Assembly: GCA_964590105.1 (NCBI GenBank)
Contig: CAZPYM010000001.1
Location: 76,768 to 140,767, forward strand
DNA length: 64,000 nucleotides
Reading direction: 5' to 3'
DNA from: an uncultured Gammaproteobacteria bacterium
Lineage (GTDB): Bacteria > Patescibacteriota > Patescibacteriia > UBA11705 > JABHMO01
The notes beneath the pieces are model-generated. The model saw nothing but the letters and a program-made list of their open reading frames with translations, did not search any database and was not told the DNA's origin. This document shows, in pieces, positions 2,919 to 62,640 of the stretch (its first letter is position 1; each line of letters begins with the position of its first letter). The position numbers and the translations under genes are program-made.

Positions 2919-2967
2919 ACAGCGTTCGCGCAGTTTCGCGTTTTGTTCTGCGTGGTTTCGCGTAAAT

Positions 2968-4289: not shown

Positions 4290-4361
4290 AATACGACATG
4301 ACGGATCGTTTGTCAAGGGCGGATGTTTTTATTTTTGTTGATGTGATAAAATTAAGGCATT

Positions 4362-4929
4362 ATGGAGGAGAAATTGTTCCAGGATAAATATCGCATTAAA
4401 TCAACTCGTTTGGCCAATTGGGTTTATTCGTTGGATGGATTTTATTATGCAACGATTTGCGTTAATGATCGGCGAGAATGTTTTGGGCGCGTTCAGAATG
4501 GGAAAATGATTTTATCGTCAATTGGACAAATTGCGTATGAGTGTTGGTAGAAAATTCCAATATTTTTTCCGTTTGTAACATTGGATGAATATGTTGTAAT
4601 GCCAAATCATGTGCATGGTTTGTTGCGGATTTTGCAATCGCAAGATGATTGTGATCGTGATTACGATTGTGGTAGAGACGCGATTAATCGTGGCTCTACG
4701 GCGGGCGGAACGGCGGTCTTTTGGTGAAATAATGCGGTGGTTCAAAGGTAAATGCACATTTCTTATTCATAGAAGCCATATTAATTTCAAATGGCAACCG
4801 CGTTTTTACGACCATGTTGTGCGCGATCAAAACGATTTGGAGCGCATCCGTCATTATATCCAAACCAATCCGGAACGTTGGTGTCGAGATCGAAATAATT
4901 CCGCCAATGAATTTAAATTTCATGATTGA
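4362..4929 (+). pseudogene. IS200/IS605-family (RayT / REP-associated tyrosine transposase-like) HUH transposase, disrupted
   Basis: N-terminal part (…FYYATICVNDRRECFG…) ends at an in-frame TAG at 4548..4550. The HuH motif VVMPNHVHGLLRI follows in the same frame. The C-terminal part (…RFYDHVVRDQNDLERIRHYIQTNPERW) is in the +1 frame (ORF 4609..4929). Confidence 0.6.
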
Positions 4930-9625: not shown

Positions 9626-9710
9626 AACACGAATGGGCTGCACGCGAATGACGCGAATTAGAGAGTAAATCGAAGACAACGAAGCAATGAAATAAAGAAA
9701 CAATTAATCA

Positions 9711-9737: not shown

Positions 9738-9781
9738 TTAGGATGATTTACCATGGTAAAAAAGTTATCCACAGGGGGCTC

Positions 9782-9809
9782 TTGACGTATTTAATTACAC
9801 GAGTATAAT
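9782..9809 (+). promoter_or_regulatory. sigma70-like promoter for the large noncoding region; a consensus DnaA box lies just upstream (9765..9773)
   Basis: TTGACG (9782..9787), a 16-nt spacer, TATAAT (9804..9809); upstream TTATCCACA. Confidence 0.5.
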
Positions 9810-9816
9810 AGGCATT

Positions 9817-10952
9817 ACAGTCGCAAAAAGCTCATTACAAGTCAGAGGCAGAAAAAGACAAGGGACGTCATGGATTGAAGCGCAAGCAGAGAACCATGAT
9901 CTAGCTATGAAAAGCGCCTTGCACTTACCTGCACCATTGATCAAGTAGCCAAAGCCAGCGAGTAATCAAAGGCCAAAGCAAAAGATCAAGCCAGCTGTTC
10001 AAGCCAAAGCAGAAAGCTTAGTGAAGACAACAAACTCTTGATTTCGTAGAGATACGGAGCCAAAGGCAAGTTGAAAACACAAAGCCAAAAGCAAAAGCAA
10101 GAACACGACTTCAAAACCTATGACCTCACGGTCAGAAGTCCAGAAGTTCAAGGCAGTACTAGCACTGTGGTTGAAGAAAAAGACCGGAGCAATCCGGAAA
10201 CTATCCTCAACACTAATCCAGTCTTTGGAATTGTAGCAATACAAACCCAAAGAAAAGCCAGACCAAAATCCGGCTCAAAGCAAAAAGCAACGTCGCAAGA
10301 CAATGCAGAAAGCTAAGAGCTAGATAAAAGTTTGACCTGGAATCACGCAAGCGCAAGCAAGCAAGATTCCCAGTGATTAGAAGGCAATGGAAGCCGCGAT
10401 CGCAAGATCAAAGCAACCAAAGCCAAACACAGCGCGAAAAGTTCAAGCGCAAACCGGGGACCAGACCAAAGCGGTCTGCTTCGAAAGAAGACTTGTTACT
10501 TCGGTAATAAGTAGCCGGAATGCATCAGTCCCCTTAAAAGGATTGAAAGATGCCAAAGGGCAAACCTGACAAGGAAAAGGAAAGCTTGATGGAGAGAGTA
10601 TCTATCAAAAAGGAAATAAACCTTGGCAACAAGGCAGACATCCTTGGAGAAAGTAACTCAAACTATCTTTAGTTCACTTCGGTGGACAAGCTGCCAAATC
10701 AATTCAGAAGAACTTCTGGAGGAGGATGACACCTGGAGGAGCAATCCAAAAGGAATATTCCTTGATACCATTAGTTCAAAAGAAAAGAAGAGGTCACCCC
10801 CAGTACCTGTCATGGCGAGCAAAACGCGCGTCTACTTGAACCAAGCACTTGGTAAAATCTTTCATGTAAATGAGCCTGAGGCAAGCCAACCAGCAAGCCA
10901 CTAGCGACTCATAGGAGGCAATCGTCACAACGAGAGCCTCCTGTTTTTTTTG
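9817..10952 (+). ncRNA. candidate large (~1.1 kb) structured noncoding RNA of unknown class
   Basis: Promoter-to-terminator unit with stop codons in all frames and only 60-93 aa low-complexity ORFs. Strongly T-poor and A-rich on the + strand, with CAAAGC-like repeats. Contains two C(UUCG)G hairpins (cttgttacTTCGgtaataag; gttcacTTCGgtggac), a GNRA hairpin (ccggaGCAAtccgg) and a cagacc/ggtctg hairpin. Confidence 0.45.
10914..10952 (+). terminator. intrinsic terminator ending the noncoding unit
   Basis: ggaggc…gcctcc stem with an inner tcg/cga stem, followed by gtttttttt. A second GC hairpin (ccctgcc/gggcaggg) lies just downstream. Confidence 0.6.
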
Positions 10953-11114
10953 TACAGATGTACCCCTGCCTGCCGGCGGGCAGGGATTAAGTACAGATTG
11001 AGGGAGTTTGTATGATAATCGGATGTGTCGCTTTCTTTGTTTATATATTTATTATTGTTATAATTTGAATACGATTTTGCCTTCGCATAAACTGAATCGT
11101 TTAATCAAAATCCA

Positions 11115-20496: not shown

Positions 20497-20685
20497 GAGT
20501 CTAAAATTGGAAATTTGAAATTAGAAATTAGGGCAGGGGCCAAGCAATTTCCAATCCAACTTCAACCCCAGTTTCAAATTTCCAGTTTCGTTATTTCTCC
20601 CCCTCATCTTATTACATCCTTCCTGAATTAACAAGTTGATAATATCTGGATAAATCGGGCATTGAGAAGTCTATTGGCAGTAATA

Positions 20686-29822: not shown

Positions 29823-29848
29823 GTTACTTTTTGGCAGCAAAAAGTAAC
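29823..29848 (+). other. 10-bp perfect hairpin GTTACTTTTT-GGCAGC-AAAAAGTAAC in the murC leader; a near-identical hairpin recurs in the secA leader (34431..34457)
   Basis: Direct inspection; part of a ~180-nt GC-rich structured leader (29790..29975). Confidence 0.4.
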
Positions 29849-29980
29849 CACCCTTCGACTCCTTCCGTCGCTCAGGGTGACACAGAGGCACAAAAGGGCG
29901 AACGAAGTTTATGCTGAGCGGAGCGAAGTGCCCCGGACCCCGTGGAATGAAATGTATTGTTCACTGATTTTTAAAACATT

Positions 29981-31345
29981 ATGAATTTAGAGAATACAAA
30001 AAAAGTTTTTATAAGCGGCATTGGCGGCATCGGCGTTTCAGCCCTGGCGCGGTTTTTTATTAGCAAAAGAATTGAAGTTGTTGGCTCTGATTCAGAAAAG
30101 TCGGAGATAACTGAAGCGTTGGAAAAAAGAGGCATTAGAATTTATTACGATCAAAAAGCGGAAAATGTTACTTTTGCCAATGACTTGTTTGTTTATTCGG
30201 CAGCTGTTCCTCTTGATAATCAGGAAAGAAAAAAGGCCAAAGAACTCGGGCTCCCGCAAAAAAGTTATTTTGAAGTTCTGGGCGAGATCAGCCGGCTTTA
30301 TAACACGGTGGCGGTTTCCGGCACTAATGGCAAATCAACAACCACGGCCATGATTGCCGGCATTTTGCTCAAGGCTAGGAAAGATCCGACCGTGATCCTT
30401 GGCTCTTGTTTTGAAAAGTTGGACAACAATTTTCGCGCCGGCGCGTCAGACCTTTTTGTTGTCGAGGCCTGCGAATATCGGGCGCACATGCTCCTGCTTC
30501 ATCCTCAAACAATCGTTCTGACAAATATTGAGGAGGATCATTTGGATTTTTACAAAGACATCAATCATATTGTGCAGACATTTCAACAGTATGTAAAAGG
30601 GCTTCGTTCGGAAGACAATTTATTGGTAATGAACAGCGATGATGTAAATATCCGGAAAATGGCTTTGCCGAAATGCAAAATTGTGCGATTCGGATTGATC
30701 GGCGGCACTGACGTGTGGGCTGACAATATCCGCAAATTGCCGGGTAAGCAAATTTTTAATGTTATTTATTACGGCCAAAATATCGGTGAATTTGAGCTCA
30801 GCGTGCCGGGTGATTTTAATATTTATAATGCGCTTGGCGCCATTGCCTATTGCCTGACTCTGAATATTTCGATTGGCGAGGTGAAAGAAGCGATTCGCGA
30901 GTTCAGGGGAATCTGGCGGCGATTTCAAATTATCAAAGACAAAGAAATAACTGTGATTTCTGATTACGCTCATCACCCGACCGCTATTAGAGAAACAATT
31001 AAGGGCGCACGGGAATTTCTACCGGGCCGCCGCGTGGTGGCGGTTTTCCAGCCGCATCAGCGCGATAGAACAAAAAAGCTATTGGCTGAATTTGCCAAAA
31101 GTTTTGATTTGGCTGATGCAGTGATTTTGTCGGAAATATATGATGTTGCCGGCCGCGAGCAGGAGATTGCTATTAGTTCAAATGATTTGGCGGGGATTAT
31201 GAAAAAAGAAAAACCAAGTAAGCAGATATTTTTTGTCAAAGATCTGAATGAAACAAAAGAAAAAATTAAAGAGATTGTAAAAGATGAAGATATTGTTTTG
31301 GTAATGGGGGCGGGGGATATTTATAAGATTGTTAAGGAAATTTAA
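29981..31345 (+). CDS. murC: UDP-N-acetylmuramate--L-alanine ligase
   Basis: ISGIGGIGVSALARFF Rossmann N-terminus, Mur ligase Walker A GTNGKSTT, and a C-terminal Mur domain. Confidence 0.8.
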   Translation: MNLENTKKVFISGIGGIGVSALARFFISKRIEVVGSDSEKSEITEALEKRGIRIYYDQKAENVTFANDLFVYSAAVPLDNQERKKAKELGLPQKSYFEVLGEISRLYNTVAVSGTNGKSTTTAMIAGILLKARKDPTVILGSCFEKLDNNFRAGASDLFVVEACEYRAHMLLLHPQTIVLTNIEEDHLDFYKDINHIVQTFQQYVKGLRSEDNLLVMNSDDVNIRKMALPKCKIVRFGLIGGTDVWADNIRKLPGKQIFNVIYYGQNIGEFELSVPGDFNIYNALGAIAYCLTLNISIGEVKEAIREFRGIWRRFQIIKDKEITVISDYAHHPTAIRETIKGAREFLPGRRVVAVFQPHQRDRTKKLLAEFAKSFDLADAVILSEIYDVAGREQEIAISSNDLAGIMKKEKPSKQIFFVKDLNETKEKIKEIVKDEDIVLVMGAGDIYKIVKEI

Positions 31346-31346
31346 T

Positions 31347-31385
31347 GCGAATATGCTTATCTGCGAATGCCGCGAATATGCGAAT
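31347..31385 (+). repeat. array of four GCGAAT(A) heptamer repeats immediately after murC
   Basis: TGCGAATATGC…TGCGAATGCC…CGCGAATATGC…GCGAATAGC. Confidence 0.5.
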
Positions 31386-31478
31386 AGCACAATGGAAGAA
31401 GCCTTCGCGCAAGTGATTAGTTCTTGTAGCAATTTGTGTATTCGCGGCATCCGCATGATCTATAATTCGCATAACTAT

Positions 31479-31866
31479 ATGGATGAAGATAAAATAATAC
31501 ACAAGCAATTATCCTACGATATTAATGGGTTATTATTTCGAGTTCATAATGAGCTTGGTAAATATTGCAATGAGAAGCAGGTCGGCGACTTGCTCGAGCA
31601 GTTTTTAAAAGAGGAAGGGTACAATTATGAAAGAGAAAAAAATTGTTCCGCCGTTATTTGAGAATGAAAAGCCAGGACGCAACCGTGTTGATTTTGTGAT
31701 TGAAAGTAAAGTTGTTATAGAGCTTAAAGTAAAGAGAATTTTATCTCGTGAAGACTATTACCAGCTTCGTCGATATTTAAAAGCATTGAATTTTAAATTA
31801 GGGATATTGGTAAATTTTCGTAGCGATTATTTAGCGCCAAAAAGAGTTTTAAATTCAATAGCTTAG
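31479..31866 (+). pseudogene. GxxExxY-family PD-(D/E)xK protein (PDDEXK_3-like) split by a frameshift in an A7 run
   Basis: N-part …LFRVHNELGKYCNEKQVGDLLEQFLKEEGYNYEREK and C-part KPGRNRVDFVIESKVVIELKVK…YYQLRRYLKALNFKLGILVNF match the family end to end. The reading frame changes at gagaaaaaaattg (31631..31642). Confidence 0.55.
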
Positions 31867-31874
31867 CTTTAACT

Positions 31875-31929
31875 ATTCATCTATTCGTTTATTCGCATAT
31901 TTGCATCATTCGCATAGTCTCTAATTCGC
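31875..31929 (+). repeat. array of ATTCGCA(T) repeats, the inverse of the upstream GCGAAT array
   Basis: ATTCGCATAT, CATTCGCATAG, TAATTCGCATAA plus two degenerate copies; one more copy overlaps the -10 at 31461..31471. Confidence 0.5.
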
Positions 31930-32103
31930 ATAAACCATATGGAGGAGTTAGCTCGAAAAAAAGGAAGATTAAAAAAGCAACAAAAAAAGAAATTGGCTAA
32001 ATCATCAAGTACGCTGGCGGGTCAGGCGTCAAGAATGAAAACAGCCAAAGGATATTTCGGTCGGCGCGAGGCAGGCGTTAAAATTAAGTTTGATTAAGTT
32101 GAA

Positions 32104-33072
32104 ATGGCTTGGTATAATATGGATATGAAAGAGCAATTAATGAAAAAAATAGGTCTGGAAGTTTTGGAAAATGAATTATTGGCAAATTACACTACTTTTA
32201 AAATTGGCGGCCCAGCCAAATTTTTTGTTAGAGTGAACAACAAAGCTGATTTATTTAAGACATTAAAAGCAGTCAAGGAATTTGATCTGCCTTTTTTTAC
32301 TTTGGGTGGCGGCAGTAATGTCCTCGTGGCGGACAAAGGTTTTGATGGTCTAGTTATCAAATTGCATGACGGGCAGGCTGAATTTTCCGGGCAAACTGTT
32401 AAAATTTTTGCCGGCCATAGCTGGGCCGGATTGATTCGGGAATGTGTAAAAAAGGGGCTTGGCGGGCTGGAATTTGGCGCCAATATTCCGGGCACGGTTG
32501 GCGGTGCTGTTTACGGCAATGCGGGAGCCTATGGCAAGGGAGCCGGCGATTATATTCAAAGCGTGGAAGTCATTTGTCTGGATGACAATGAAATCAATCT
32601 TAAAATTTTAACCAAAGATGATTGCGCGTTCAATTACCGCGACAGTATTTTTAAAAAACATAAAGATTGGATTATCAGTGAAATTGTTTTTAAGCTTGAG
32701 CGCGATGAAAAAGCCATTGAAAAATTAAAACAAATTGAAAATGAATGGCAGAGTCGCTGTGACAAACAGCCACTGAATCTTCCGAGCGCCGGTTGTTCAT
32801 TCAAAAATGTCATATATACCGGCGAGCTTGATCGTTTCAAAGAATGGGAAATAAAGGGCAAATTGCCGGCCGCCAAGTTTATTGAAGATGCGGATTTAAA
32901 GGGTATGAAAATTGGCGGTGCCTTGGTTTCCGATAAGCACGCAAATTTTATTGTTAATACCGGCAATGCCAAAGCGGACGATATTGTCCAGCTGATCAGC
33001 GTGATCAAAACCAGAGTGCGCAATGAGTTTGGCGTTCAGCTGGAAGAAGAGATTCAGTATGTGGGGTTTTGA
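32104..33072 (+). CDS. murB: UDP-N-acetylenolpyruvoylglucosamine reductase
   Basis: FAD-binding domain (TTFKIGGPAKFF…GGGSNVL) and a C-terminal MurB domain; the exact start is uncertain (32104, 32119 or 32125). Confidence 0.8.
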   Translation: MAWYNMDMKEQLMKKIGLEVLENELLANYTTFKIGGPAKFFVRVNNKADLFKTLKAVKEFDLPFFTLGGGSNVLVADKGFDGLVIKLHDGQAEFSGQTVKIFAGHSWAGLIRECVKKGLGGLEFGANIPGTVGGAVYGNAGAYGKGAGDYIQSVEVICLDDNEINLKILTKDDCAFNYRDSIFKKHKDWIISEIVFKLERDEKAIEKLKQIENEWQSRCDKQPLNLPSAGCSFKNVIYTGELDRFKEWEIKGKLPAAKFIEDADLKGMKIGGALVSDKHANFIVNTGNAKADDIVQLISVIKTRVRNEFGVQLEEEIQYVGF

Positions 33073-33231
33073 AGTCGTATGTGAGAAGTGATAAGTGAAA
33101 TTGAAAGAAAAGATCGCAACCCCAATTTCTAGTTTCCAATTTCCAATTATATGTACCATCGTTCAATACTGCGAGCTGTTCTTAATTACAAAATTAATAT
33201 TGTAATTAAAGTTTTGATTTTTTCGGATTTT

Positions 33232-34181: not shown

Positions 34182-34576
34182 TCCGGGCGGATATACTGGG
34201 TATTCAAAGTGTTGTTTTATTCATTGTTCATAGAGGCAGTTTTATAATTTTTACGAGTAATACTTATTTAGCCGGTGGGGGTTTGGGGGTAAATTGCTGA
34301 GCCAGTGGCCGTGGCTGTCGTACGAAGCAACATCAACGTGCTGTCTAGTATTGAGCACACTAACGTGACGAGGAGGAGTGAGAACCACGAAAAAGATGCT
34401 CTGACGCGAATCAATTATCCCCCAAACTTTTGTTACTTTTGGTTACAAAAGTAAACACAGGTATTGAAATTGCGCTAATGACAGGAGGGGTGCTGTTTTT
34501 TGTTTGAAAACAACGGACACTTGTTTTTTGGCTTGAAAAATGCTAGAATGCTGGTATTGATTTAGAAAAAAATAAT

Positions 34577-37741: not shown

Positions 37742-38229
37742 TTTTACTGTATATTTTTAAAAATTTATTTTATCAAATAAAAAAAACGAGCTATCCATTT
37801 ATACTTAGGATAGCTCTTGTGAACCTTGATCAGGAGGGCGCGTCCGAGCGACGCCGGGCAGGCGAGTGACAAACCTTCGTTCGGTTCAAAACAGTCTGTT
37901 TCAACCCGGCCGACCTGATCCCTTCCGCCCGGCTTCTGCATTGACGAAGCCTTTCGGAATCAGATGTATAATAGCATGGCTACTATGTTTTGTCAAGCTT
38001 AGGCGGCGTTGCTACAAACAGAAACCTTTTTGTACACAGAGAGGTTTTTTTGATTGTGATATAGTAAAATTATATGGCGGAATTATTTAAAGGAAATTAT
38101 TGGATCAAATCAACGCATTTGACGACTTTGAATTATGCTTGGTTTATGAATGTGGTTTTGTGGTTGCAAAATTAATTTAAATGAGCTAGAATATCTGCGA
38201 GTGCAATTCTTAAATTATTTATTGATTTT

Positions 38230-51782: not shown

Positions 51783-53240
51783 TTGATTATGAACTACGGT
51801 ATTCGAAAAAAAATATTATACCTTACGATTTTGGGGATGGCTGGTGCCATTCCCTTTGTGTTTAATCCTTTTGGCTTTTTCAGATATGAAGTTGAAAAAA
51901 TTTATTTGTTCCGCTTAATTGTCAGCCTAATGTTTGCCGGCTGGCTGGTTTGGATGGGAAGTTTAAAAAACATCCGGACTTGGCTTTGGCAATGGGCGAG
52001 TGAAGTAAAGTTTTTTGATGTGGAGCTGTGGCAGATTTTTTTGCTGGCGGCGTATGGGCTCGCCACAACTCTTTCCATTTCGCCAGCGGACAGTTTCTGG
52101 GGGTTGCCTGATCGCGAGTTTGGCCTGATAACAGTTGCCGGATTGATACTGTTTTTTTGGCTAGGCCGGGGAATATTCAATCGGGTCAGGCAGGTTGAAT
52201 CTTTATGTTTGGTGATTTTAATATTCAGTTCTCTAATCAGCCTCTATGCCGTATTGCAAAAATTCGGCCTGGAATTTATTTCGGACGCCCGAATTGTTAC
52301 GCTTGGCACTGATAAAACAGTGATCCGACCGCTAGCCACGCTCGGTCATCCCAATTATTTGGGCGCCTATCTGGCCATGGTTTTTCCGTTCATTTTATTT
52401 TATTACGCGCGTGTTAAAAAAAAATGGCTGAAAATTATCATTCCCTTGATAATGATTGTTCATTTGGCGGCGCTTTACTTCACTCTAAACCGCGGCGGCT
52501 GGCTGGCGGGCATGGCTGGAATATTATGTTTTTTAATTTTTTATTCAATAAAAATAAAACAGCCGAAAAGAGTTGCCGTTCTTTCAATTGCCATGCTTGT
52601 AGTGATCGCCATGTTTTTTACCGGATTTTTCGGGTTTGGCGGCGACAAAAGGACCAAGGATTTGACCATTGAAGGCGGTTCTATGTATGTGCGGATTCAG
52701 GAGTATAAATATGCCCTGACAAAAATTATTGAAAAACCTTTGCTTGGCTATGGCCCGGAAACTTATATGTATCTGGCTATGAATCGTGAATACACGGAAA
52801 AAGAATTGCAAATTGATGACCGTTTGAGCGACCGTGTGCATAATATTTTTTTGGATATGGCCATTAATATTGGTTTAATTGGCTTGATAATCTTCATCGG
52901 GATATTTATAAAAATGTTTTCAACGGCCTGGAAAAAAATTCAGTCGGAAGTTCAAGGTTCCGGCCGCCTGGTCTATATTGCGGCGGGAAGTTCTCTCATC
53001 GCTTATCTGGTTGAAGTGCAGTTTCATTTTGACACTATTGTAACTTCGATTTTTGTGGCTGTTAATTTTATTCTAATTTACGCTAATTTTTCTAAAAATA
53101 AACTTAAAGACGCTGATGATTTTCAACCGGCAAAAATTAGCCTGCCGGTTTGGTGTCTGGCGGCAATAGTTTTGATTATCAGCATATACTTAAATATCGG
53201 CGCCATGATTTGGAATGTTATTGGCTATAAATGGCGGTGA
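51783..53240 (+). CDS. O-antigen ligase-like (Wzy_C/RfaL family) polytopic membrane protein
   Basis: More than 10 TM helices; periplasmic loop with HNIFLDMAINIGLIG-type motif. Confidence 0.55.
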   Translation: MIMNYGIRKKILYLTILGMAGAIPFVFNPFGFFRYEVEKIYLFRLIVSLMFAGWLVWMGSLKNIRTWLWQWASEVKFFDVELWQIFLLAAYGLATTLSISPADSFWGLPDREFGLITVAGLILFFWLGRGIFNRVRQVESLCLVILIFSSLISLYAVLQKFGLEFISDARIVTLGTDKTVIRPLATLGHPNYLGAYLAMVFPFILFYYARVKKKWLKIIIPLIMIVHLAALYFTLNRGGWLAGMAGILCFLIFYSIKIKQPKRVAVLSIAMLVVIAMFFTGFFGFGGDKRTKDLTIEGGSMYVRIQEYKYALTKIIEKPLLGYGPETYMYLAMNREYTEKELQIDDRLSDRVHNIFLDMAINIGLIGLIIFIGIFIKMFSTAWKKIQSEVQGSGRLVYIAAGSSLIAYLVEVQFHFDTIVTSIFVAVNFILIYANFSKNKLKDADDFQPAKISLPVWCLAAIVLIISIYLNIGAMIWNVIGYKWR

Positions 53241-53403
53241 AACATTAAATTTGCTATAATATAAAAATGCGGATTTAACGGAGGAGACGCGGATTTAACG
53301 GATGAAAAATTTATTGTGAGTTTAAGCGCAAGGAAATTGAAAAGTATTAATTGGTTTTTAAAATAAGTTAGTACGCTAAGCTCCGCGTTTATCCGCACTA
53401 ATC

Positions 53404-53417
53404 CGCGAATATTCGCG
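53404..53417. promoter_or_regulatory. perfect 14-bp palindrome CGCGAATATTCGCG abutting the start codon of the beta-CASP RNase gene; candidate operator
   Basis: Palindrome read directly; flanked upstream by GCGGATTTAACGGA ×2 (53268..53303) and by ATCCGC ×2 (53390..53406). Confidence 0.4.
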
Positions 53418-53425
53418 CTATGTAT

Positions 53426-54895
53426 ATGAAGTTAAAATTTTGTGGTGCAGATCAAAACGTTACCGGCTCCCGACATCTCCTCGAGATCAATGGCAAGAAG
53501 ATACTTTTGGATTGCGGGATGTTTCAGGGCGGCGATCGAGAAAAGACGCGCCAGTTGAACGAAGAATTTCTTTTTGAGCCGCAGGAAGTTGATTATCTTT
53601 TGCTTTCGCACGCTCACATTGACCATTGTGGCGCTATTCCGCGGCTGGTTAAGCTTGGTTTCAAAGGAAAAATAATTTCAACCTCAGCCACCCGTGAATT
53701 GACCGAGGTGATGCTACTCGATAGTTCGCACATTCAAATGCAGGACGCGAAATATGCTGGCCGGCATTCGCAAAAAACAGCTGAACCGCTTTATACGGAA
53801 AAAGATGTCAGGGCGGCCATGCAGCTTTTTGAAAGTTATGAATATTTTCAAAAATTCAAATTATGCGAAAACGTCTGGGTGACTTTTTACGACGCCGGTC
53901 ATGTGCTCGGCTCGGCTATAATGGCGCTTGATTTCAAGGATGACGGCGAGCAAAGGCGGCTGGTTTTTACCGGCGATCTTGGCCGCAAATACATGCCGAT
54001 CTTAAATGATCCCTATCAGATTGATCATGCGGATATTTTAATTATTGAGAGCACTTACGCCAGCCATTTGCACGATCCCATTGATTCGGTTTATGAGGAA
54101 ATAACTTGGGCGATCAATGATGTGGTCAAACGCGGCGGCAAAATAATTGTGCCCGGGTTTTCTTTTGAAAGAACGCAGGCGTTTGTTTATGTTTTGCACC
54201 AGCTTTATAATCAGAAGAAAATTCCAAAGATTCCCATTTTTGTGGACAGCCCATTGTCAACGGAAATTTCTGAAGTGTTTGATAAACATCGGGACTATTA
54301 TGACAATGAAACTTTTCGCGATTTTCTCAACAAAAAACAAAGTCCGTTTTATTTTAACGAGATAAAATATACCAAGTCGGTGGAAGAATCCAAAGCGCTC
54401 AATTATTATAATAAGCCGTGCATAATTATTTCCGCCTCCGGTATGTGCGATGCCGGTCGTATTGTGCATCATTTGAAAAATCACATGAGCGACCCAAAAA
54501 ATATGATTTTGGTCATTGGTTTCATGGCTCGTGGCACTCGTGGTCGGCAGATTGTCGAGGGCAAGCCCAGGATCAAGATTTTTGGCGAGCAATATGCTCT
54601 GCGCGCTGACGTGGTGGTTCTAAATTCGTTTTCCGCGCACGCGGATAAGCTAGAGCTGCTCGAATACATCAGAAATATCAGCGATTTAAAAAATATTTTC
54701 GTTGTTCATGGCGAGGAAACCGAATGCGCGGTACTGCGCGACAATATCTATAATATTTTGAAATTAAAATGTCGTGTGGATGTGGTGGATATGGGTGAGG
54801 AGTTTGAAGTAACTTCCAAGGGCACTGAGAGTATGCTCGGCAAACGCAGGAAAAAATATTTTGCTGAAATGGAAAGTTTAAAGCTGAAGACATAG
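53426..54895 (+). CDS. beta-CASP family MBL-fold RNA-metabolising hydrolase (RNase J / CPSF-like)
   Basis: HAHIDHCG metallo-beta-lactamase motif, beta-CASP region and a C-terminal RNA-specificity domain; start could be 53420 or 53426. Confidence 0.7.
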   Translation: MKLKFCGADQNVTGSRHLLEINGKKILLDCGMFQGGDREKTRQLNEEFLFEPQEVDYLLLSHAHIDHCGAIPRLVKLGFKGKIISTSATRELTEVMLLDSSHIQMQDAKYAGRHSQKTAEPLYTEKDVRAAMQLFESYEYFQKFKLCENVWVTFYDAGHVLGSAIMALDFKDDGEQRRLVFTGDLGRKYMPILNDPYQIDHADILIIESTYASHLHDPIDSVYEEITWAINDVVKRGGKIIVPGFSFERTQAFVYVLHQLYNQKKIPKIPIFVDSPLSTEISEVFDKHRDYYDNETFRDFLNKKQSPFYFNEIKYTKSVEESKALNYYNKPCIIISASGMCDAGRIVHHLKNHMSDPKNMILVIGFMARGTRGRQIVEGKPRIKIFGEQYALRADVVVLNSFSAHADKLELLEYIRNISDLKNIFVVHGEETECAVLRDNIYNILKLKCRVDVVDMGEEFEVTSKGTESMLGKRRKKYFAEMESLKLKT

Positions 54896-55059: not shown

Positions 55060-55998
55060 ATGGACAACAACATCACTCAAACCTACCGTGACATCAAGTT
55101 AATCAAAATTCAGGGTGCGACCAATATTGCTCTGGCCGTTGGCAAAGCTTTGAAAAAATATGCCAAGGATTTAACAGCAATAAGCAAGCGCGATTTTGTA
55201 CAGAAAATTTCCAGCGCCGGCAAGTATTTGGTTGGCGCGCGAGACACCGAACCCATGGCTGACAATGTTGTTGAGTTTATTGTTTATCAATTGAACAAAA
55301 CAAAAACGACTGAAGTCAGGGAATTAAAAAGTGTTCTGGCTGATTCAATTGATTATTTTTTTGATTTGGTAAATAAAAATGATTTACAGATTATTAAACA
55401 CGGCGAGCGGTTGATCAAATTCGGCGACAAAGTTTTTACTCATTGCCATTCCTCAACGGTTATGAAGGTTTTGCTGGCCGCTAGAAAAAACAAAAAGCGC
55501 TTTGAAGTTTTTCAAACTGAAACCCGGCCGCTTTATCAGGGGCGCAGAACTGCGGCCGAACTTCTGAAAAATAAGATTAAAGATACTATGGTTGTTGATT
55601 CGGCCGCGCCGTATTTAATCAGCAAAATAAGCGGCCCTAGATTTCAAATTGACAAATTAATAATCGGCTGTGACGCTATCAGCCGCGACGGATCATGCGT
55701 CAATAAGGTCGGCAGTTTCGGCCTGGCGCTCGTGGCTTTTTTGAATAAAGTGCCGGTTTATGTTGTGACGCAAGCTTTGAAAATAAATGAAGAAGCTAAA
55801 AATTTAAAGGCGATTAAAATTGAACAGCGTAGCGCCCGCGAAGTCTGGAATGGCGCGCCGAAAGATTTGAAAATTTATAATCCGGCTTTTGATAAAGTGC
55901 CGGTCGAACTAATTACCGGGTATATTTGCGAATTTGGGGTAGTGAAACCGGAAAACCTGATCAAGAAAATCAAAAAAGATTATAGTTGGTTGTGGTAA
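55060..55998 (+). CDS. ribose-1,5-bisphosphate isomerase (eIF-2B alpha/beta/delta family, e2b2)
   Basis: eIF-2B-like fold with …IIGCDAISRDGSCVNKVGSFGLALVA…; sits in the cluster with RuBisCO III and AMP phosphorylase. Confidence 0.65.
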   Translation: MDNNITQTYRDIKLIKIQGATNIALAVGKALKKYAKDLTAISKRDFVQKISSAGKYLVGARDTEPMADNVVEFIVYQLNKTKTTEVRELKSVLADSIDYFFDLVNKNDLQIIKHGERLIKFGDKVFTHCHSSTVMKVLLAARKNKKRFEVFQTETRPLYQGRRTAAELLKNKIKDTMVVDSAAPYLISKISGPRFQIDKLIIGCDAISRDGSCVNKVGSFGLALVAFLNKVPVYVVTQALKINEEAKNLKAIKIEQRSAREVWNGAPKDLKIYNPAFDKVPVELITGYICEFGVVKPENLIKKIKKDYSWLW

Positions 55999-56049
55999 AA
56001 AAAAGATAAACATTTTTTATTTTACTTTATAATCATTAACTAAAATATT

Positions 56050-56898
56050 ATGTCACATGAAATAATGCCAATCTTTGAAGGATATGGTGAAAAAGACAAA
56101 GAAATTTTTGGAGGAGAATTTAAATTATTAAATTTAGGTAAGAAAGAGGGTAGCTTTAAGCCAACAGATCCCAAATTTTATGAAAGGATAGAGGGTGTTA
56201 GAAAAAAATTAGGATTAAAGTACATTTTTGCACCAAGCTTAGCTTTTACAAAACGAACAGCATCAATGACTAACAAAGGTGAGGAAAAGTTTATGTTTGG
56301 ATCAGAAGGCAAGGATGATAAAGTCGCTACTGAAGGTATTATGAGAACAGAAGAAAAAGCTGATGGCGGAATAGTTTTTTTGGATGATTTAGAAAAGAAA
56401 GGTATAAATCCAAATGAAGTTGGAATCGCTGGTTTTAATGCTGATTGTCCATTTATTGTTGGTTATGATGAAAAGAAAAGAGCGATGTTCATGCTTCATG
56501 CTGGCTTAGCGTGTCTGCAAAAGACAGGTGAAAGAAATCATGAAACTATATTCGAAAAGGTAGTGAAGGATCATGATTTAGATCCAAAAAACATTAAAAT
56601 ATTTGTAACCGGAGGAATTCAAAAGTGTTGTTATGGGCGAGATGATCAGGTTTTTCCTGATGTTATGAAAGCCTGGGGCGTGCGTTTCGGTTCAGTTGCT
56701 ACCGAAGGTTCCAGAGAAGGTCAAACTTCAATGAATTTGTTAGCTTTGATTTACAATGATTTACTACGAGTAGGTGTTAATTCCGATAATATTGATGTGA
56801 ATGAAAAGTGTACCTGTTGTGATGGTGAACATTGGAGTAATGTTAAAGGTGATCAAGAAAGAAATTTAGTTTTGGTTAGACCAAACTTTTCTGAATAA
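56050..56898 (+). CDS. YfiH/PgeF (DUF152, LACC1-like) family purine-nucleoside enzyme candidate; AT-richer than its neighbours
   Basis: …FNADCPFIVGYDEKKRAMFMLHAGLACL… aligns with the YfiH …TADCLPVL…AAAHAGWRGL… core; C-terminal …EKCTCCDGE… matches …DRCTYTENE…. Confidence 0.4.
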   Translation: MSHEIMPIFEGYGEKDKEIFGGEFKLLNLGKKEGSFKPTDPKFYERIEGVRKKLGLKYIFAPSLAFTKRTASMTNKGEEKFMFGSEGKDDKVATEGIMRTEEKADGGIVFLDDLEKKGINPNEVGIAGFNADCPFIVGYDEKKRAMFMLHAGLACLQKTGERNHETIFEKVVKDHDLDPKNIKIFVTGGIQKCCYGRDDQVFPDVMKAWGVRFGSVATEGSREGQTSMNLLALIYNDLLRVGVNSDNIDVNEKCTCCDGEHWSNVKGDQERNLVLVRPNFSE

Positions 56899-56937
56899 AA
56901 CAAAAAAAATCCCCAATTGTCAAGTGGGAAAAAGTGA

Positions 56938-57363
56938 GTGGAGATTTATATGAAAATCAAATGTATTATTTTTGATTTTTACAATGTCTTGTACCCTTTT
57001 ACTGCTGAAGCTGAAAAGGTTGTTGAATATTGCCGAAGTAAAGGATTAAAGCTGGCGGCGGTTTCCAGTTTATCCCCAGAAAAAGTTGATGAAATTGCCA
57101 AACATTATAAAATAGATACAGTGCTGGCTTCCTGGAACTTTGGTCTGCACAAAACTCAGCCTGAAATTTATCAGCGATTGCTCGGCCGGCTGGAACTAAA
57201 GGGTTGCGAATGCCTGATGGTTGACGATGAGCAGATCCGGCTTTCGGCGGCGAAAAGCTGCGGAATAAATACGGTTTGGTTGAAATTGGTGGAAGGTGAT
57301 AAACTTGAAACAACGGATTGCGTAATCAGCGAACTAGGGGAACTAAGTGAATTAGCGAATTAG
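56938..57363 (+). CDS. small HAD-superfamily hydrolase-like protein (variant motif I, DFYN instead of DxDG)
   Basis: IIFDFYNVL (motif I-like) and MVDDEQIRLSAAKSCGINTV (motif IV-like). Confidence 0.45.
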   Translation: MEIYMKIKCIIFDFYNVLYPFTAEAEKVVEYCRSKGLKLAAVSSLSPEKVDEIAKHYKIDTVLASWNFGLHKTQPEIYQRLLGRLELKGCECLMVDDEQIRLSAAKSCGINTVWLKLVEGDKLETTDCVISELGELSELAN

Positions 57364-57395
57364 CGAATTGGAGAATTGGCGAATTGGAGAGTGGA
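57325..57395 (+). repeat. tandem 8-9-bp repeats (GAACTAAG/GAATTAGC/GAATTGGC…) spanning the HAD gene's 3' end and the intergenic region
   Basis: gaactaggggaactaagtgaattagcgaattagcgaattggagaattggcgaattggagag. Confidence 0.4.
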
Positions 57396-57659
57396 AATAA
57401 AATATAAATAAGCCGAGGAGCTCCGAGCGGAGCGAGGAGCGACGAGGCGGCCGTCCGCCGGGACATACGCTTTCCCCCTCCCGACGGAGCGCAAGGGAAA
57501 GCGGAAATAATTATTGAATTGAAAAGCGGAGTACAGGGAGGGGGACAAAGGGGGTGGGTTCTTGCGGTAAGCGATTATATGCGGCGGATTCGTGAAAGGG
57601 CGGTTTCAGAAATTTCGATGAACTTAATTAACCTAATTAATCTTAATTAACTTTATTAT

Positions 57660-58943
57660 ATGCCCCACGTCGGATTTATTGACCCCATGTATCAGCCAAA
57701 TTACAAAAAAGAGATTGTGGCCACTTTTCATATGGAGCCGGAAGTGGCTTTTAATGAAGCGGCGGAGGCAGTGGCCGGTGAAAGTTCAATTGGTTCGTGG
57801 ACTGATTTATCCACGCTAAAGCCGGAAGTTGCCCAAAAAATTAAAGCCGTGGTTTTTTATTTAAATCAAAAACAAAAAATTATTAAAATCGCTTATCCTT
57901 TGGATTTGTTTGAACTCGGAAGCATTCCACAATTTCTTTCGAGCGTGGGCGGTAATGTTTTTTCAATGAAAGCCGTGAAAAATCTGCGATTGTTGGATGT
58001 GGAATTCCCGGAAAAATATATTAAAAGTTTTCAAGGGCCGGCGCTTGGCATTGAGGGTATTAGAAAAATATTGAAAAATAAAGACCGGCTTATTCTTGGC
58101 AGTATTATTAAACCCAAAGTCGGATTAACTGCGGCTGAACACGCGGAGGTTGCCTATGAAGTGTGGCGGAATGGAATTGACCTGGTAAAAGACGATGAAA
58201 ATCTGACCGACATGGTTTTTAATCGATTTGAAGAGCGGGTAAAAAGAACTTTGGCCAAAAGAAAAAAAGCAGAAGAGGAAACAGGAAAAATTAAAATATA
58301 TGCAGTGAATATTACCGCACCGGCAGATATCATGCTGGAACGAGCCAAGTTTGTGAAGGCGCAGGGCGGCCGTTGTGTAATGGTGGATATAATTTCAACC
58401 GGCCTCGACAATGTTCAGTATTTACGTAAGCAAAATTTAGGTTTGATAATTCACGGGCACCGAGCGGGCCATAGCACTTTTACCCGCAATCCGCGGCACG
58501 GTATTACCATGCTCGTCATTGCCAAACTTGCCAGATTGGCTGGAGTTGATCAGCTTCATACTGGCACAGTCGTTGGCAAGATGGAAGGTTCAGTGGATGA
58601 TGTCTTGACGACTAATGAGCTGTTGCGGGAAGACTGGCAGCATTATCATGTTCTTCAAGAAAATTGGACGTCATTAAAACCAACCATGCCCATTGCTTCA
58701 GGCGGACTGCATCCGGGCCTTTTGCCAAAACTGGTTGAAATCCTTGGCAGCGATTTAATCGCTAATTTTGGCGGCGGGGTGCATGGACATCGAGATGGCT
58801 CGGCAGCCGGCGCTCGCGCCTGTTTTCAGGCGGCTGAGGCCATTGCAGCGGGCAAATCACTGCGCGATCAGGCCAAATTTCATCCTGAACTGAAAATAGC
58901 GCTGGATCAGTGGGGCGGTGTGAAATATAAATATGAGAGGTGA
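57660..58943 (+). CDS. rbcL: ribulose-1,5-bisphosphate carboxylase large subunit, form III (II/III-like) type
   Basis: RuBisCO large-subunit catalytic motifs (…GGLHPG…, …GGGVHGHRDGSAAGARA…); about 427 aa with no small-subunit gene nearby. Confidence 0.8.
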   Translation: MPHVGFIDPMYQPNYKKEIVATFHMEPEVAFNEAAEAVAGESSIGSWTDLSTLKPEVAQKIKAVVFYLNQKQKIIKIAYPLDLFELGSIPQFLSSVGGNVFSMKAVKNLRLLDVEFPEKYIKSFQGPALGIEGIRKILKNKDRLILGSIIKPKVGLTAAEHAEVAYEVWRNGIDLVKDDENLTDMVFNRFEERVKRTLAKRKKAEEETGKIKIYAVNITAPADIMLERAKFVKAQGGRCVMVDIISTGLDNVQYLRKQNLGLIIHGHRAGHSTFTRNPRHGITMLVIAKLARLAGVDQLHTGTVVGKMEGSVDDVLTTNELLREDWQHYHVLQENWTSLKPTMPIASGGLHPGLLPKLVEILGSDLIANFGGGVHGHRDGSAAGARACFQAAEAIAAGKSLRDQAKFHPELKIALDQWGGVKYKYER

Positions 58944-59133
58944 AGAGGATATAGGATGAACAGGATAAATAGGAGATTAGAAACTGGAAATCAGAAATTG
59001 GGGTTACTGTCTTTTCTTTCTATTTCACATCTCACGTCTCACTTCTCACTTCTCATGTCTTACTACTTTTTCGCGTTTGTAATTTGTTATTTGCTTGTAA
59101 TTTGTTATTTGTAATTTGTAATTTTATTATTTT

Positions 59134-60633
59134 ATGTCGTATTATCTAAAATGTAAAAAACTGGATTTTTCCACCGGCGGGCCATTGGTGGTTCTTTTGA
59201 ATGAAGAAGAAGCGCAAAACTACGGTATTTATCCGGGAGACAGAGTTCAAATCGGCTGGGACAAAAAAAAGAAAGAGATTGCCGACGTGGATGTTTCGGA
59301 TTCGAAAGTCCAACCTGGCGAGATCGGATTATTTGAGGAAATTTGGAAAAAACACAATGTTGAAAGCGGCGACGTGGCTGAAATAACGTTGGAATCGCGG
59401 CCGCTGTCAATGGAAACTCTGCGAAAAAAAATGCTTGGCAAGCCGGCCAATTACAAAGAAATGTATGCGCTGATCAAAGATATTGCTGACGGCAGAATGG
59501 GTAAAATTGAAACAACATATTACGCGGCCAGCGGATTTGTTAAACCTTTTTCTGACCAGGAACTTTATTTTGTGGCCAAGGCCATGGCGGAAACCGGTGA
59601 ACAATTCAATTATAAAAAAATAAAAGTGGCAGACAAACATTCGGTCGGCGGCTTGGCCGGCAATAGGATGACGCCGATTATTGTTTCAATAATTGCTTCA
59701 CTTGGAATTTACATTCCGAAAACATCTTCTCGCGCCATCACTTCGCCTGCAGGAACTGCGGATATGATGGAAGTTCTTTGCCCCGTAAGTTTTACCTTGC
59801 CGGAAATAAAAAAAATTGTGCGCAAAACAAAAGGCTGCCTGGTCTGGGGTGGCGGACTGCGCATGGCGCCGGCTGATGACAAAATTATTAAAGTTTCCCG
59901 GCCGTTGGCAGTGGAATCATATGATAAAATGATTGTCAGTATTATTGCCAAGAAAGTGGCGACCGGTGTTGACTATTTAGTTGTGGATGTTCCTGTAGGC
60001 GCGACCTGTAAAGTGCCGGACATGAAACATGCCAGGCAAATTGAGAAAAAGTTTCATGCTCTGTGCAAAAGATTTAATATTAAAGTAAAAGTGGTAATAA
60101 CTCCAGCCAAAGAACCGATCGGTCGGGGAATAGGACCGGCGCTCGAAGCTAGGGATGTTCTGCGCGTTCTTCAGCAACATAAATTCAAGCCGCTTGATCT
60201 GGAAAATAAATCTTGCAAGCTGGCCGGCAAGCTTCTCGAATTAAAAGGGTTTTGTCGCGCTGGCAAGGGAATTTTAATCGCCAAGCAGCAAATAAAAAAC
60301 GGCGAGGCTTGGAAAAAAATGAATCAGATTATTATTGCTCAGGGAGGCAAAGTAGATATTAATTCCGAAGAAGTAATGCAGGAAGTGGAACGCTATGAGA
60401 TTCATGCCAAAAGAAAAGGGAAAATAGCTTTTGTTGATAATAAAGAAATAAATGAGGTGTGCATGAACCTGGGCGCGCCGATTGATAAATACGCCGGTAT
60501 TCATACGCACGTGAGATATGGCCAAAAAGTGAAAAAAGGTCAGAAGCTTTTCACCATGTACGCCAGCAGTCATGATCGCCTAAAACTGGGCGTGGCCGCC
60601 GCCGGTAACAATATAATTTTCCACATCAATTAG
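59134..60633 (+). CDS. AMP phosphorylase (thymidine-phosphorylase family with N-terminal extension)
   Basis: Pyrimidine-nucleoside phosphorylase core (…HSVGGLAGNRMTPIIVSIIASLG…TSSRAITSPAGTADMMEV…) plus an N-terminal extension, next to RuBisCO III and e2b2. Confidence 0.75.
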   Translation: MSYYLKCKKLDFSTGGPLVVLLNEEEAQNYGIYPGDRVQIGWDKKKKEIADVDVSDSKVQPGEIGLFEEIWKKHNVESGDVAEITLESRPLSMETLRKKMLGKPANYKEMYALIKDIADGRMGKIETTYYAASGFVKPFSDQELYFVAKAMAETGEQFNYKKIKVADKHSVGGLAGNRMTPIIVSIIASLGIYIPKTSSRAITSPAGTADMMEVLCPVSFTLPEIKKIVRKTKGCLVWGGGLRMAPADDKIIKVSRPLAVESYDKMIVSIIAKKVATGVDYLVVDVPVGATCKVPDMKHARQIEKKFHALCKRFNIKVKVVITPAKEPIGRGIGPALEARDVLRVLQQHKFKPLDLENKSCKLAGKLLELKGFCRAGKGILIAKQQIKNGEAWKKMNQIIIAQGGKVDINSEEVMQEVERYEIHAKRKGKIAFVDNKEINEVCMNLGAPIDKYAGIHTHVRYGQKVKKGQKLFTMYASSHDRLKLGVAAAGNNIIFHIN

Positions 60634-62388: not shown

Positions 62389-62393
62389 CTCGA

Positions 62394-62537
62394 CTCGCTA
62401 CGCTAGCTCGTGGTCTTCGACCAAGTATCGGAAAAAGAGTCGAGTGCCTCGAACGAACCCTTCACTTTCGTTCAGGGTAAACTCCGTGAGGCGAGAGGCA
62501 AGTTACTCGCTACGCTCGCTCGTGGTCTTTGGCCAAG
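62394..62537 (+). repeat. two 32-nt direct repeats (29/32 identical) 80 nt apart, immediately downstream of tRNA-Ser
   Basis: ctcgctacgctagctcgtggtcttcgaccaag (62394..62425) versus ctcgctacgctcgctcgtggtctttggccaag (62506..62537); a 10-bp stem cactcgactc/gagtcgagtg also pairs 62388..62397 with 62438..62447. Confidence 0.5.
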
Positions 62538-62640
62538 GAAAGGGACGAAAGTCTTGATATATGCAGGTGAGCCTGGAGTCTCATGTGCAATATTAATTGC
62601 GGCAGGCTTTGTAAATGACATTATTAATTTATCCATCAGT

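Follow-up and report, generated by a model that had tools for sequence, protein, structure and literature searches.

In a 64,000-nucleotide (nt) stretch of contig CAZPYM010000001.1 from a Patescibacteria genome (hereafter, the window), a beta-CASP RNase gene is separated from its predicted promoter by an element built of short repeated words, and similar words recur as tandem arrays in other intergenic regions. The beta-CASP element comprises a purine-rich 5' arm, an AT-rich loop, and a pyrimidine-rich 3' arm of complementary words (Table 1). The 5' arm pairs with 53381-53406, and the region 53269-53417 folds at -41.2 kcal/mol (z = -2.9; fold significance is given throughout as the z score against shuffled sequences). 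In the loop, a promoter-like TTGAAA-16-TAAAAT at 53337-53364 with 10/12 matches is no better than those found in shuffled sequences. ATCCGC occurs in the 3' arm at 53391 and 53401, and the perfect 14-bp palindrome CGCGAATATTCGCG is present at 53404-53417, as reported in an earlier reading made from the letters alone (the sequence-only reading). That reading placed the palindrome on the start codon. It does abut the first ATG at 53420, ending 2 nt before it, but the conserved MK(I/L)KFCG N-terminus begins at the second ATG, 53426, so that the palindrome probably lies 8 nt upstream of the true start. Orthologues share this conserved ATGAAAATAAAATTTTGTGG start, which would give a protein of 489 aa; the public gene call uses an internal Met at 53519 (458 aa). 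The palindrome itself is the junction at which the 3' arm's final ATTCGCG unit adjoins one CGCGAAT unit. Alone, it forms an unexceptional hairpin of 5 bp with a 4-nt loop (-6.2 kcal/mol, z = -1.0).

We compared this locus with those of related genomes. The closest relative of the beta-CASP protein in a species-level genome collection is 81% identical and belongs to a Candidatus Kuenenbacteria metagenome-assembled genome (MAG); further relatives, at 81% identity or less, are from Falkowbacteria and "Patescibacteria group" MAGs, and no relative with protein identity between 81% and 100% was found for comparison of orthologous sites. A TTTGCTATAAT block aligns with the orthologue promoters of loci L002, L003, and L004, and TGCTATAAT in the window probably acts as the beta-CASP promoter. 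In two relatives at 75 to 81% protein identity, L001 (the Kuenenbacteria relative) and L002, the spacing from TATAAT to ATG is 8 nt, versus ∼150 nt in the window: the 5' arm begins 8 nt past the -10 element, exactly where L001 and L002 have their ATG. Judging from this spacing, the beta-CASP genes of these two relatives look leaderless. At this position, L003 has an unrelated hairpin (z = -2.2), and so does L004 (z = -7.2), in the latter case directly after the -10. In Rfam, the leader region 53150-53500 had no match at E ≤ 1. The gene is present in identical form in public assemblies, on contigs of 237 to 563 kb. Over the 4.6 to 20.5 kb that they cover of the 3' third of the window (43519-64000), four independent assemblies, one of which (L126) spans this third entirely, matched the window at 100% except for one single-nucleotide polymorphism. 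This limited sample represents one clonal population, and no array-length polymorphism of the type seen in phase-variable contingency repeats was present among these four assemblies.

GCGAAT/ATTCGC words are enriched in intergenic DNA: 17 of the 55 sites in the window are intergenic, although intergenic DNA makes up only 12.3% of its bases (binomial P = 2e-4). All of the motif clusters listed in the sequence-only reading are present, with small coordinate offsets. TTCGCG occurs three times before a holin-like gene (2925, 2935, and 2957), GCGAAT four times near 31347 (31347, 31363, 31372, and 31380), and ATTCGC at 31891, 31908, and 31924 together with degenerate copies in the repeats given as 31875 to 31929. 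For two triplets the sites were confirmed and the ranges corrected: that given as 9643 to 9675 consists of CACGAAT at 9628 and CGCGAAT at 9643 and 9652, and the GCGAATT triplet given as 57364 to 57395 (sites at 57355, 57363, and 57379) begins ∼9 nt earlier. Three clusters hold at least three GCGAAT/ATTCGC sites within 45 nt, and all three are intergenic; random placement gives a mean of 0.04 such clusters, with a probability of three or more of 5e-5. The sites cluster because they form tandem repeats with a period of 8 to 9, as called by Tandem Repeats Finder (TRF), and are not independent occurrences. Apart from the palindrome, the GCGAAT-type clusters are same-strand tandem arrays with periods of 8 to 13 bp, which follow stop codons as frequently as they precede start codons. 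The TRF unit of the array at 31345 is ATGCGAAT (five copies), and a GAATTGGC-type unit is repeated five times at 57349, where the first units of the array are the last codons of a HAD-hydrolase gene. Longer identities connect distant loci. Positions 9642-9663 match 22 of 22 nt of a copy in the 5' region of dnaG (L459 18385-18406, same-genome DNA ∼7.5 kb past the window end), the 11-nt identity between 11082-11092 and 31925-31935 has a chance expectation of ∼0.004 in intergenic DNA by our own estimate, and the arrays at 9626 and 57347 both end in GCGAATTRGAGAGT.

The most complete of these elements occupies the whole spacer between murC and the next gene (31343-31481), which folds as one stem-loop at -57.4 kcal/mol (z = -6.2), with none of 200 shuffled sequences as stable. 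The same architecture is built from unrelated words, including GAAAYT, TTTGTAA, TCACGTC, and CTTAATTAA. TRF and a listing of intergenic sequences gave at least ten words in the 83 kb of same-genome sequence examined, the whole genome being at least 560 kb long. TRF units have periods of 7 to 9 and are repeated head to tail in 2.7 to 7.4 copies. Among 26 arrays with periods of 6 to 10, 16 are intergenic (P = 4e-9 against the 12.3% of intergenic bases), and many have a stop or start codon no more than 15 nt away. The GAAAYT family recurs at four intergenic loci, which hold 13 of 13 matches versus 5.7 expected, and other word families likewise recur at several loci. The spacer between the RuBisCO and AMP phosphorylase genes contains TRF units of ATAGGATAA at 58951, TCACGTC at 59025, and TTTGTAA at 59076. 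Composition depends on position: post-stop arrays (GCGAAT, GTGAAT, AGGATAA, and GAAAYT) are purine-rich on the coding strand, with purine fractions of 0.55 to 0.80 in four of five, whereas the eight arrays nearest starts (ATTCGC, ATCCGC, AATTTC, TTTGTAA, and CTTTTAC) have fractions of 0.14 to 0.42 (Mann-Whitney U test, P = 0.03). The fifth post-stop array, at 31882, has a purine fraction of 0.35 and precedes the ATG of a small open reading frame (ORF). The GAAAYT element upstream of dnaB (20497-20600) and an AAAATGC element in L001 (10462-10586) each fold with z = -2.7. Words differ between relatives: the Kuenenbacteria relative has AAAATGY at two loci and ATTTGAC, and no GCGAAT arrays.

Additional instances were noted in passing. 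In L001, the genome's own element AAAATGYAAAATGAAAAATGYAAAACCAC is present as a full inverted pair filling a spacer at 10466-10580 and as a second copy at 1620-1650, seemingly within coding sequence. At L459 11460-11680, ∼0.5 to 0.8 kb past the window end, an inverted pair of CATAGAG/AGCATGGA words encloses a loop of ∼130 nt. The region 55060-60633 encodes a nucleoside-salvage trio consisting of an IF-2B-family gene, which its context suggests to be a ribose-1,5-bisphosphate (R15P) isomerase, form III RuBisCO, and an AMP/pyrimidine-nucleoside phosphorylase, and tandem-word arrays fill all of the spacers between the three genes. A candidate pairing of the 57347 array with that at 57621-57658 was rejected since folding gave no simple pairing.

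Table 1. Arrays, element parts, and adjoining genes in the window
Feature	Position	Strand	Context or basis
3'-type array (G)TTTCGCG, 3 to 4 copies, period 10-12	2919..2964	+	ends 6 nt before holin-like gene start
5'-type array CACGAAT...CACGCGAAT GA CGCGAAT TAGAGAG	9626..9665	+	directly after dNK stop
TTCGCATAAAC, 3'-type arm remnant	11082..11092	+	22 nt before ddl start; identical to 31925-31935
TTAAAAG array	19024		TRF
GAAAYT heptamer arrays (AAATTAG 20504, CCAGTTT 20568)	20503..20589	-	inverted pair upstream of dnaB
TAATCAAC array	24965		TRF
5' arm, TGCGAATA-type array, four GCGAAT, period 8-9	31345..31388	+	directly after murC stop
3' arm, ATTCGC/ATCCGC words	31429..31478	+	pairs with 31345-31388; ends at GxxExxY start codon
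Frameshifted GxxExxY / PD-(D/E)XK (PDDEXK_3) gene	31479..31866	+	Pfam PDDEXK_3 on both halves; between two 3'-type arrays, murC and murB
Second 3'-type array, TATTCGCA, ∼6 copies	31873..31936 (TRF: 31882)	+	ends at ATG of 52-aa basic ORF
GTGAGAA/GTGATAA, then four CCAATTT (TRF 33122)	33085..33148	+	murB to next gene; ends 2 nt before start codon
GAAACTA array	42150		TRF
Predicted extended -10 promoter TGCTATAAT of beta-CASP gene	53252..53260	+	sequence and orthologue alignment
5' arm, two GCGGATTTAACGGA (53269, 53289), period 20, purine-rich GCGGAT and ACGGA words	53269..53302	+	
AT-rich loop	53303..53380	+	local stems only in fold
3' arm CTCCGCG/TATCCGC/TAATCCGCG/AATATTCGCG, period 8-10, pyrimidine-rich complement words	53381..53417	+	
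Beta-CASP / metallo-beta-lactamase (MBL)-fold RNase gene (probable start)	53426..54895	+	Pfam Beta-Casp, Lactamase_B, RMMBL
CTTTTAC array	55022		TRF
5'-type array GTGAATTA GCGAATTA GCGAATTG GAGAATTG GCGAATTG GAGAG, period 8	57347..57392	+	overlaps HAD-hydrolase stop codon
AACTTAATT array	57621-57658		TRF
AGGATAA and GAAAYT (purine-rich), then TCACGTC and TTTGTAA (pyrimidine-rich)	58944..59124	+	fills RuBisCO-AMP-phosphorylase spacer

Arms also enclose larger inserts at two places. The 5'-type arm at 9626 and the 3'-type remnant at 11082 flank an insert of 1.4 kb that has a promoter and a terminator of its own. A frameshifted GxxExxY gene downstream of murC is bracketed by near-duplicates of TAATTCGCATAA(A)C.ATATGGA at 31464-31485 and 31922-31945. 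By hand translation, the frameshift lies near an A-run, with the first-frame stop near 31659 and the second frame readable from 31645. Given these two cases, the loops of the elements seem to accept cargo. Within the dNK-ddl insert, ∼1.1 kb (9760-10960) is A-rich, contains CAAAGCCAAAGC-like words, and has no ORF longer than 93 aa. A TTGACG-17-TATAAT promoter (9782-9812) precedes this stretch, which ends in a GGAGGC...GCCTCC hairpin with T8 behind it (10913-10951); the stretch had no Rfam match (best E = 0.44) and could possibly be a large noncoding RNA or a decayed gene. The second ATTCGC array is immediately followed, upstream of murB, by a very basic 52-aa ORF (MEELARKKGRLKKQQKKKLAKSSS...GVKIKFD, 31939-32097) that had no Pfam match.

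To place these arrays in a wider context, we scanned metagenome contigs for three GCGAAT units at a period of 8 to 9. At least 120 loci were found, with GC contents of 0.32 to 0.71 among the matches listed. Abundance was uninformative because control words formed comparable period-8/9 arrays in a viral collection (TAAGCG at 90 loci and GAGCAT at at least 120), and the proposal that GCGAAT arrays are unusually abundant was rejected. Inverted pairing and polarity, not abundance, set GCGAAT apart from the control words. An inverted partner array lay within 200 nt at 25 of the 120 metagenome loci and 10 of the 120 viral-collection loci listed, compared to 4 of 210 controls (Fisher P = 8e-7), and among the paired loci listed the order was GCGAAT then ATTCGC in 35 and the reverse in 0. 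Stems in the metagenome set ranged from -27 to -82 kcal/mol, and the sequence downstream of them (e.g., ggctaa) had no T runs. Gene context was codirectional in 11 cases, convergent in 6, and divergent in 1, with the stop codon often touched. One family (L030, L032, L106, L111, and L119) keeps gccGCGAATtgcGCGAATNacGCGAATgggccgc / gcggcccATTCGCgtN'ATTCGCgcaATTCGCggc with unrelated loops, and its N/N' spacers show compensatory changes (tac/gta, cac/gtg, and gac/gtc).

One member of this family, L106 (Terriglobia, Acidobacteriota), has its GCGAAT hairpin between hfq and hflX (4325-4433), where it could be followed across relatives. The same hairpin is present in shortened form in L463 (97% protein identity). 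In L464 (88%), the arms consist of GCGGATtgc ACGGATtac ACGGATggc: period and spacers are as in L106, and the words of both arms have changed (z = -16.5). L465 (84%) has an unrelated perfect hairpin at this spacer (z = -18.0). The hfq-hflX spacer of these four Terriglobia thus always holds a near-perfect hairpin of 30 to 45 bp (at ∼1390-1480 in L463, L464, and L465), and because the words differ, the hairpin appears to be kept while its sequence turns over. The GCGGAT/ACGGA words of the beta-CASP 5' arm occur in the L464 hairpin and also adjoin a GCGAAT array in L037. On this sequence comparison, GCGAAT and GCGGAT/ACGGAT appear to be interchangeable variants, in the same mixture as that at 53269-53417.

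Our preferred explanation, which we consider probable, is that the GCGAAT/GCGGAT clusters are the arms of small, dispersed, palindromic intergenic elements that are made of tandem-word arrays and act as structures. A complete element consists of a purine-rich array of 7- to 9-bp units (in one case, 20 bp) that follows either a stop codon or a promoter, then a variable loop, and finally a complementary pyrimidine-rich array extending up to the next start; the two arms can pair into a 30- to 50-bp stem-loop. The element at 53269-53417 would give the beta-CASP mRNA a leader of ∼150 nt between its conserved promoter and its start, with the 5' end (GCGGAU...) predicted to pair with AUCCGC near the start and CGCGAAUAUUCGCG forming a small terminal hairpin a short way upstream of the AUG. 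We infer that such elements act through their structure and not as sites for sequence-specific proteins. As intercistronic or 5'-terminal stem-loops in transcripts, they may affect mRNA decay, processing, or translation initiation. Known 5'-terminal and intercistronic stabilizer stem-loops offer a functional analogy only: in the beta-CASP mRNA, base pairing is predicted to start at about +1. The elements may arise and stay perfectly paired through replication slippage together with intrastrand template-switch (quasipalindrome) correction. No intrinsic terminator was found in 31200-32200 or on the plus strand of 53150-53500.

Several observations weigh against this explanation. The arrays at 2919, 57347, and 42150 have no partner arm, and the pairings within 33073-33153 (z = -1.0) and 57340-57662 (z = -1.9) were not significant. 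The sense fold was more stable than the antisense fold in seven of eight window elements, but not in the metagenome set or L001, and comparison of sense and antisense folding cannot separate structure at the RNA level from structure at the DNA level; it is also confounded by GC skew, which is steadily positive in the window (GC, ∼0.42), where genes lie mostly on the plus strand. Public gene calls start the RuBisCO and AMP phosphorylase genes 27 to 54 nt later, so the abutment of arrays on start codons is not secure everywhere. The corresponding 5' region of locus L005 contains GGCGGATTCGCGAATG, which hints at possible sequence-specific conservation. Finally, the words keep a strict polarity and GCGAAT-like words reappear in different phyla, which a sequence-specific factor would explain better than a model in which any hairpin suffices.

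Alternatively, the arrays could be a neutral by-product, made and kept in slack intergenic DNA by slippage and quasipalindrome correction with no cellular role, a possibility to which we give modest weight. Words drift along arrays and are not the same from one locus or genome to the next, the orthologous sites in L001 and L002 are not conserved, and the genes flanking the arrays have no coherent function, as would be expected of neutral sequence. The published study of similar arrays in Xanthomonas and Nostoc likewise found no function (Rehm et al., PMC4692102). However, symmetric slippage does not predict the 35:0 polarity, a long hairpin persists in the hfq-hflX spacer of four Terriglobia despite replacement of its sequence, and the beta-CASP gene has a hairpin between promoter and ATG not only in the window but also in L003 and L004. 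A small genome of the candidate phyla radiation (CPR) would, moreover, be expected to purge useless DNA.

Mobility offers another account, in which the arrays are actively mobile nonautonomous elements resembling either repetitive extragenic palindromes (REP/BIME/REPIN) or MITEs (miniature inverted-repeat transposable elements), moved by a Y1/RayT-like transposase whose decayed gene lies at 4362-4926. The sequence-only reading had raised both a REP-like dispersed element and a decayed RayT-like gene. The first of these is supported in a broad sense, by analogy only, since the elements are palindromic and dispersed and lie in intergenic DNA. Consistent with this idea, the copies are dispersed and share 11- to 22-nt identities, the arms are inverted, presence or absence at the beta-CASP promoter resembles insertion, and Terriglobia-like contigs combine near-identical stems with unrelated loops. 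Like REP sequences, the elements are intergenic and hairpin-forming, lie mostly in codirectional or convergent spacers, and include inverted doublets that form long stem-loops; REPs are known to stabilize upstream mRNA. Like MITEs (Correia/NEMIS, RUP, BOX, and ERIC), they measure ∼70 to 160 nt, have inverted ends, are intergenic, and could add promoters or processing sites. The features that define REP/RAYT systems are nevertheless lacking. The arms are tandem arrays whose words and copy numbers vary, so that arm length shifts by whole words, instead of a fixed terminal sequence or terminal inverted repeat common to all copies, and there is no fixed 20- to 40-nt imperfect palindrome with a conserved REP-type head. 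No target-site duplication was visible at 53265/53417 by comparison with L001 and L002, relatives too distant to define the ends. The window did contain a broken Y1_Tnp-like fragment, as claimed, but the match is below threshold (E = 0.009; 16.5 bits, with the cutoff at 23) and arrays do not flank it; no intact REP-associated tyrosine transposase (RAYT) gene flanked by repeats was found in the window. Nor does any transposase family recur beside the 120 metagenome arrays listed. We therefore regard active mobility as unlikely. The remnant itself is of IS200/Y1 type (RayT-like) and includes an MPNHVHGLL motif and a palindrome, GTAGAGACGCGATTAATCGTGGCTCTAC, at 4672-4699.

The sequence-only reading also proposed that the motif is bound by one transcription factor with a small regulon, citing the classic operator geometry of the palindrome. 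Such a factor would be dimeric (half-site CGCGAAT), and its regulon would include the beta-CASP RNase gene. A perfect 14-bp dyad next to a start codon, a half-site enriched in intergenic DNA, and the occurrence of ATTCGCGAAT in the same 5' region of L005 would fit operators. In the window, however, CGCGAAT-ATTCGCG occurs once, and matches with up to three mismatches number 8 versus 4.4 expected, a count reached in 8 of 100 shuffles; GCGAAT-N0-12-ATTCGC is likewise found a single time. The dyad lies ∼150 nt downstream of the conserved promoter. The other clusters are tandem on the same strand, often directly after stops (9626, 31346, and 57347), and unrelated words build the same architecture. 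Among orthologous promoters, the motif is absent from L001 to L004, and the site in L005 is differently arranged. GCGAAT arrays are, in addition, present in contigs of 32 to 71% GC, that is, in unrelated bacteria. The lone dyad, the unenriched near-matches, the post-stop positions, the distance from the promoter, and the absence from L001 to L004 therefore rule out a simple regulon, and we consider operators of one factor highly improbable.

Least probable of all, to the point of being negligible, are scars or stems of intervening-sequence (IVS)-like cassettes carrying small selfish genes (GxxExxY or four-helix-bundle) in the hairpin loop: the GxxExxY pseudogene between ATTCGC arrays with its duplicated 20-nt junction, the L006 GCGAAT array directly before a GxxExxY-like N terminus (by hand translation only; BLAST with the window protein gave no match there), and the arms bracketing the promoter-bearing 1.4-kb insert are suggestive, but no protein family recurs beside arrays among the 120 metagenome loci listed, and GxxExxY was detected in one other listed locus, where it is not adjacent to the array. 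A GxxExxY-cassette model was rejected on the same grounds after BLAST, all-against-all clustering, and motif regular expressions applied to 686 ORFs near the 120 listed arrays revealed no recurrent neighbor family.

Among published repeats, the arrays most closely resemble heptamer-type simple sequence repeats (SSRs). GGGAATC heptamer arrays in Xanthomonas are 89 to 93% intergenic, lie near ORF ends, form ∼70 convergent inverted pairs, and are mostly transcribed, with no function assigned; the corresponding word in Nostoc is GGGGAYT, and heptanucleotide arrays in Calothrix are cited in the same paper (Rehm et al., PMC4692102). TAACTGA arrays directly adjoining start codons are known from Beggiatoaceae, cyanobacteria, and Bacteroidetes (MacGregor, PMC4679880), and that report cites 7-nt units as overrepresented among long SSRs. 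The arrays described here share with this class ("long SSRs" of 5- to 11-nt units) unit lengths of 7 to 9 nt in 3 to 7 copies, intergenic bias, abutment on ORF ends, a coding strand that is G/purine-rich downstream of ORFs and carries the complement upstream of them, frequent convergent inverted pairs, flanking genes without common function, and similar words (G[GC]GAAT). Unlike the Xanthomonas, Nostoc, and Beggiatoaceae genomes, in which one word dominates, the window uses at least ten in 64 kb. Also unlike that class, loci in the window share longer identical stretches, and one element sits inside a 5' leader. G-quadruplexes, the explanation offered for GGGAATC arrays, cannot apply to GCGAAT, which has no G-tracts. 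Literature searches turned up neither GCGAAT arrays nor arrays of this type in CPR bacteria. On these sequence features, the arrays appear to be a CPR, multiword case of a known heptamer-type class of intergenic repeats whose role is unexplained.

Other repeats in the window were noted separately. GC-rich islands in AT-rich spacers (57400-57620, 29830-29950, 34290-34440, and 37830-37865) share GAGCGGAGCGA(A/G)G-like strings and GGGGG/CCCCC runs and are possibly a dispersed element or gene remnants. Rfam gave no match at E ≤ 1 in 57300-57700, and window-wide matches were tRNAs only. Just downstream of tRNA-Ser(GGA), a 49-nt direct repeat (62393-62553; 80% identity, 112 nt apart) overlaps the 5' end of a deoxyribosyltransferase-family ORF.

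We also entertain, as a speculative extension, a cross-phylum class of tandem-word palindromes spanning Patescibacteria, Acidobacteriota (Terriglobia), and contigs of 32 to 71% GC, characterized by purine-first order, concerted change of the arms, and exchangeable loops that take up cargo. If such a class exists, it would imply a dedicated mechanism not previously described, either a conserved factor that recognizes or processes the stems or a self-correcting, self-expanding dynamic of the palindromes themselves. For annotation, such clusters should not be modeled as a regulon, and motif discovery on CPR genomes will keep finding words of this kind. In this streamlined Patescibacteria genome, tandem-word arrays take up a sizeable share of the scarce intergenic DNA, and they adjoin the nucleoside-salvage genes encoding the putative R15P isomerase, form III RuBisCO, and AMP phosphorylase. 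The contrast between two leaderless-looking beta-CASP orthologues and the ∼150-nt structured leader predicted here argues that the arrays shape mRNA architecture. Two features give testable handles on how these repeats originate: the strict order of the arms, and the way in which both arms changed in concert at a single orthologous spacer.

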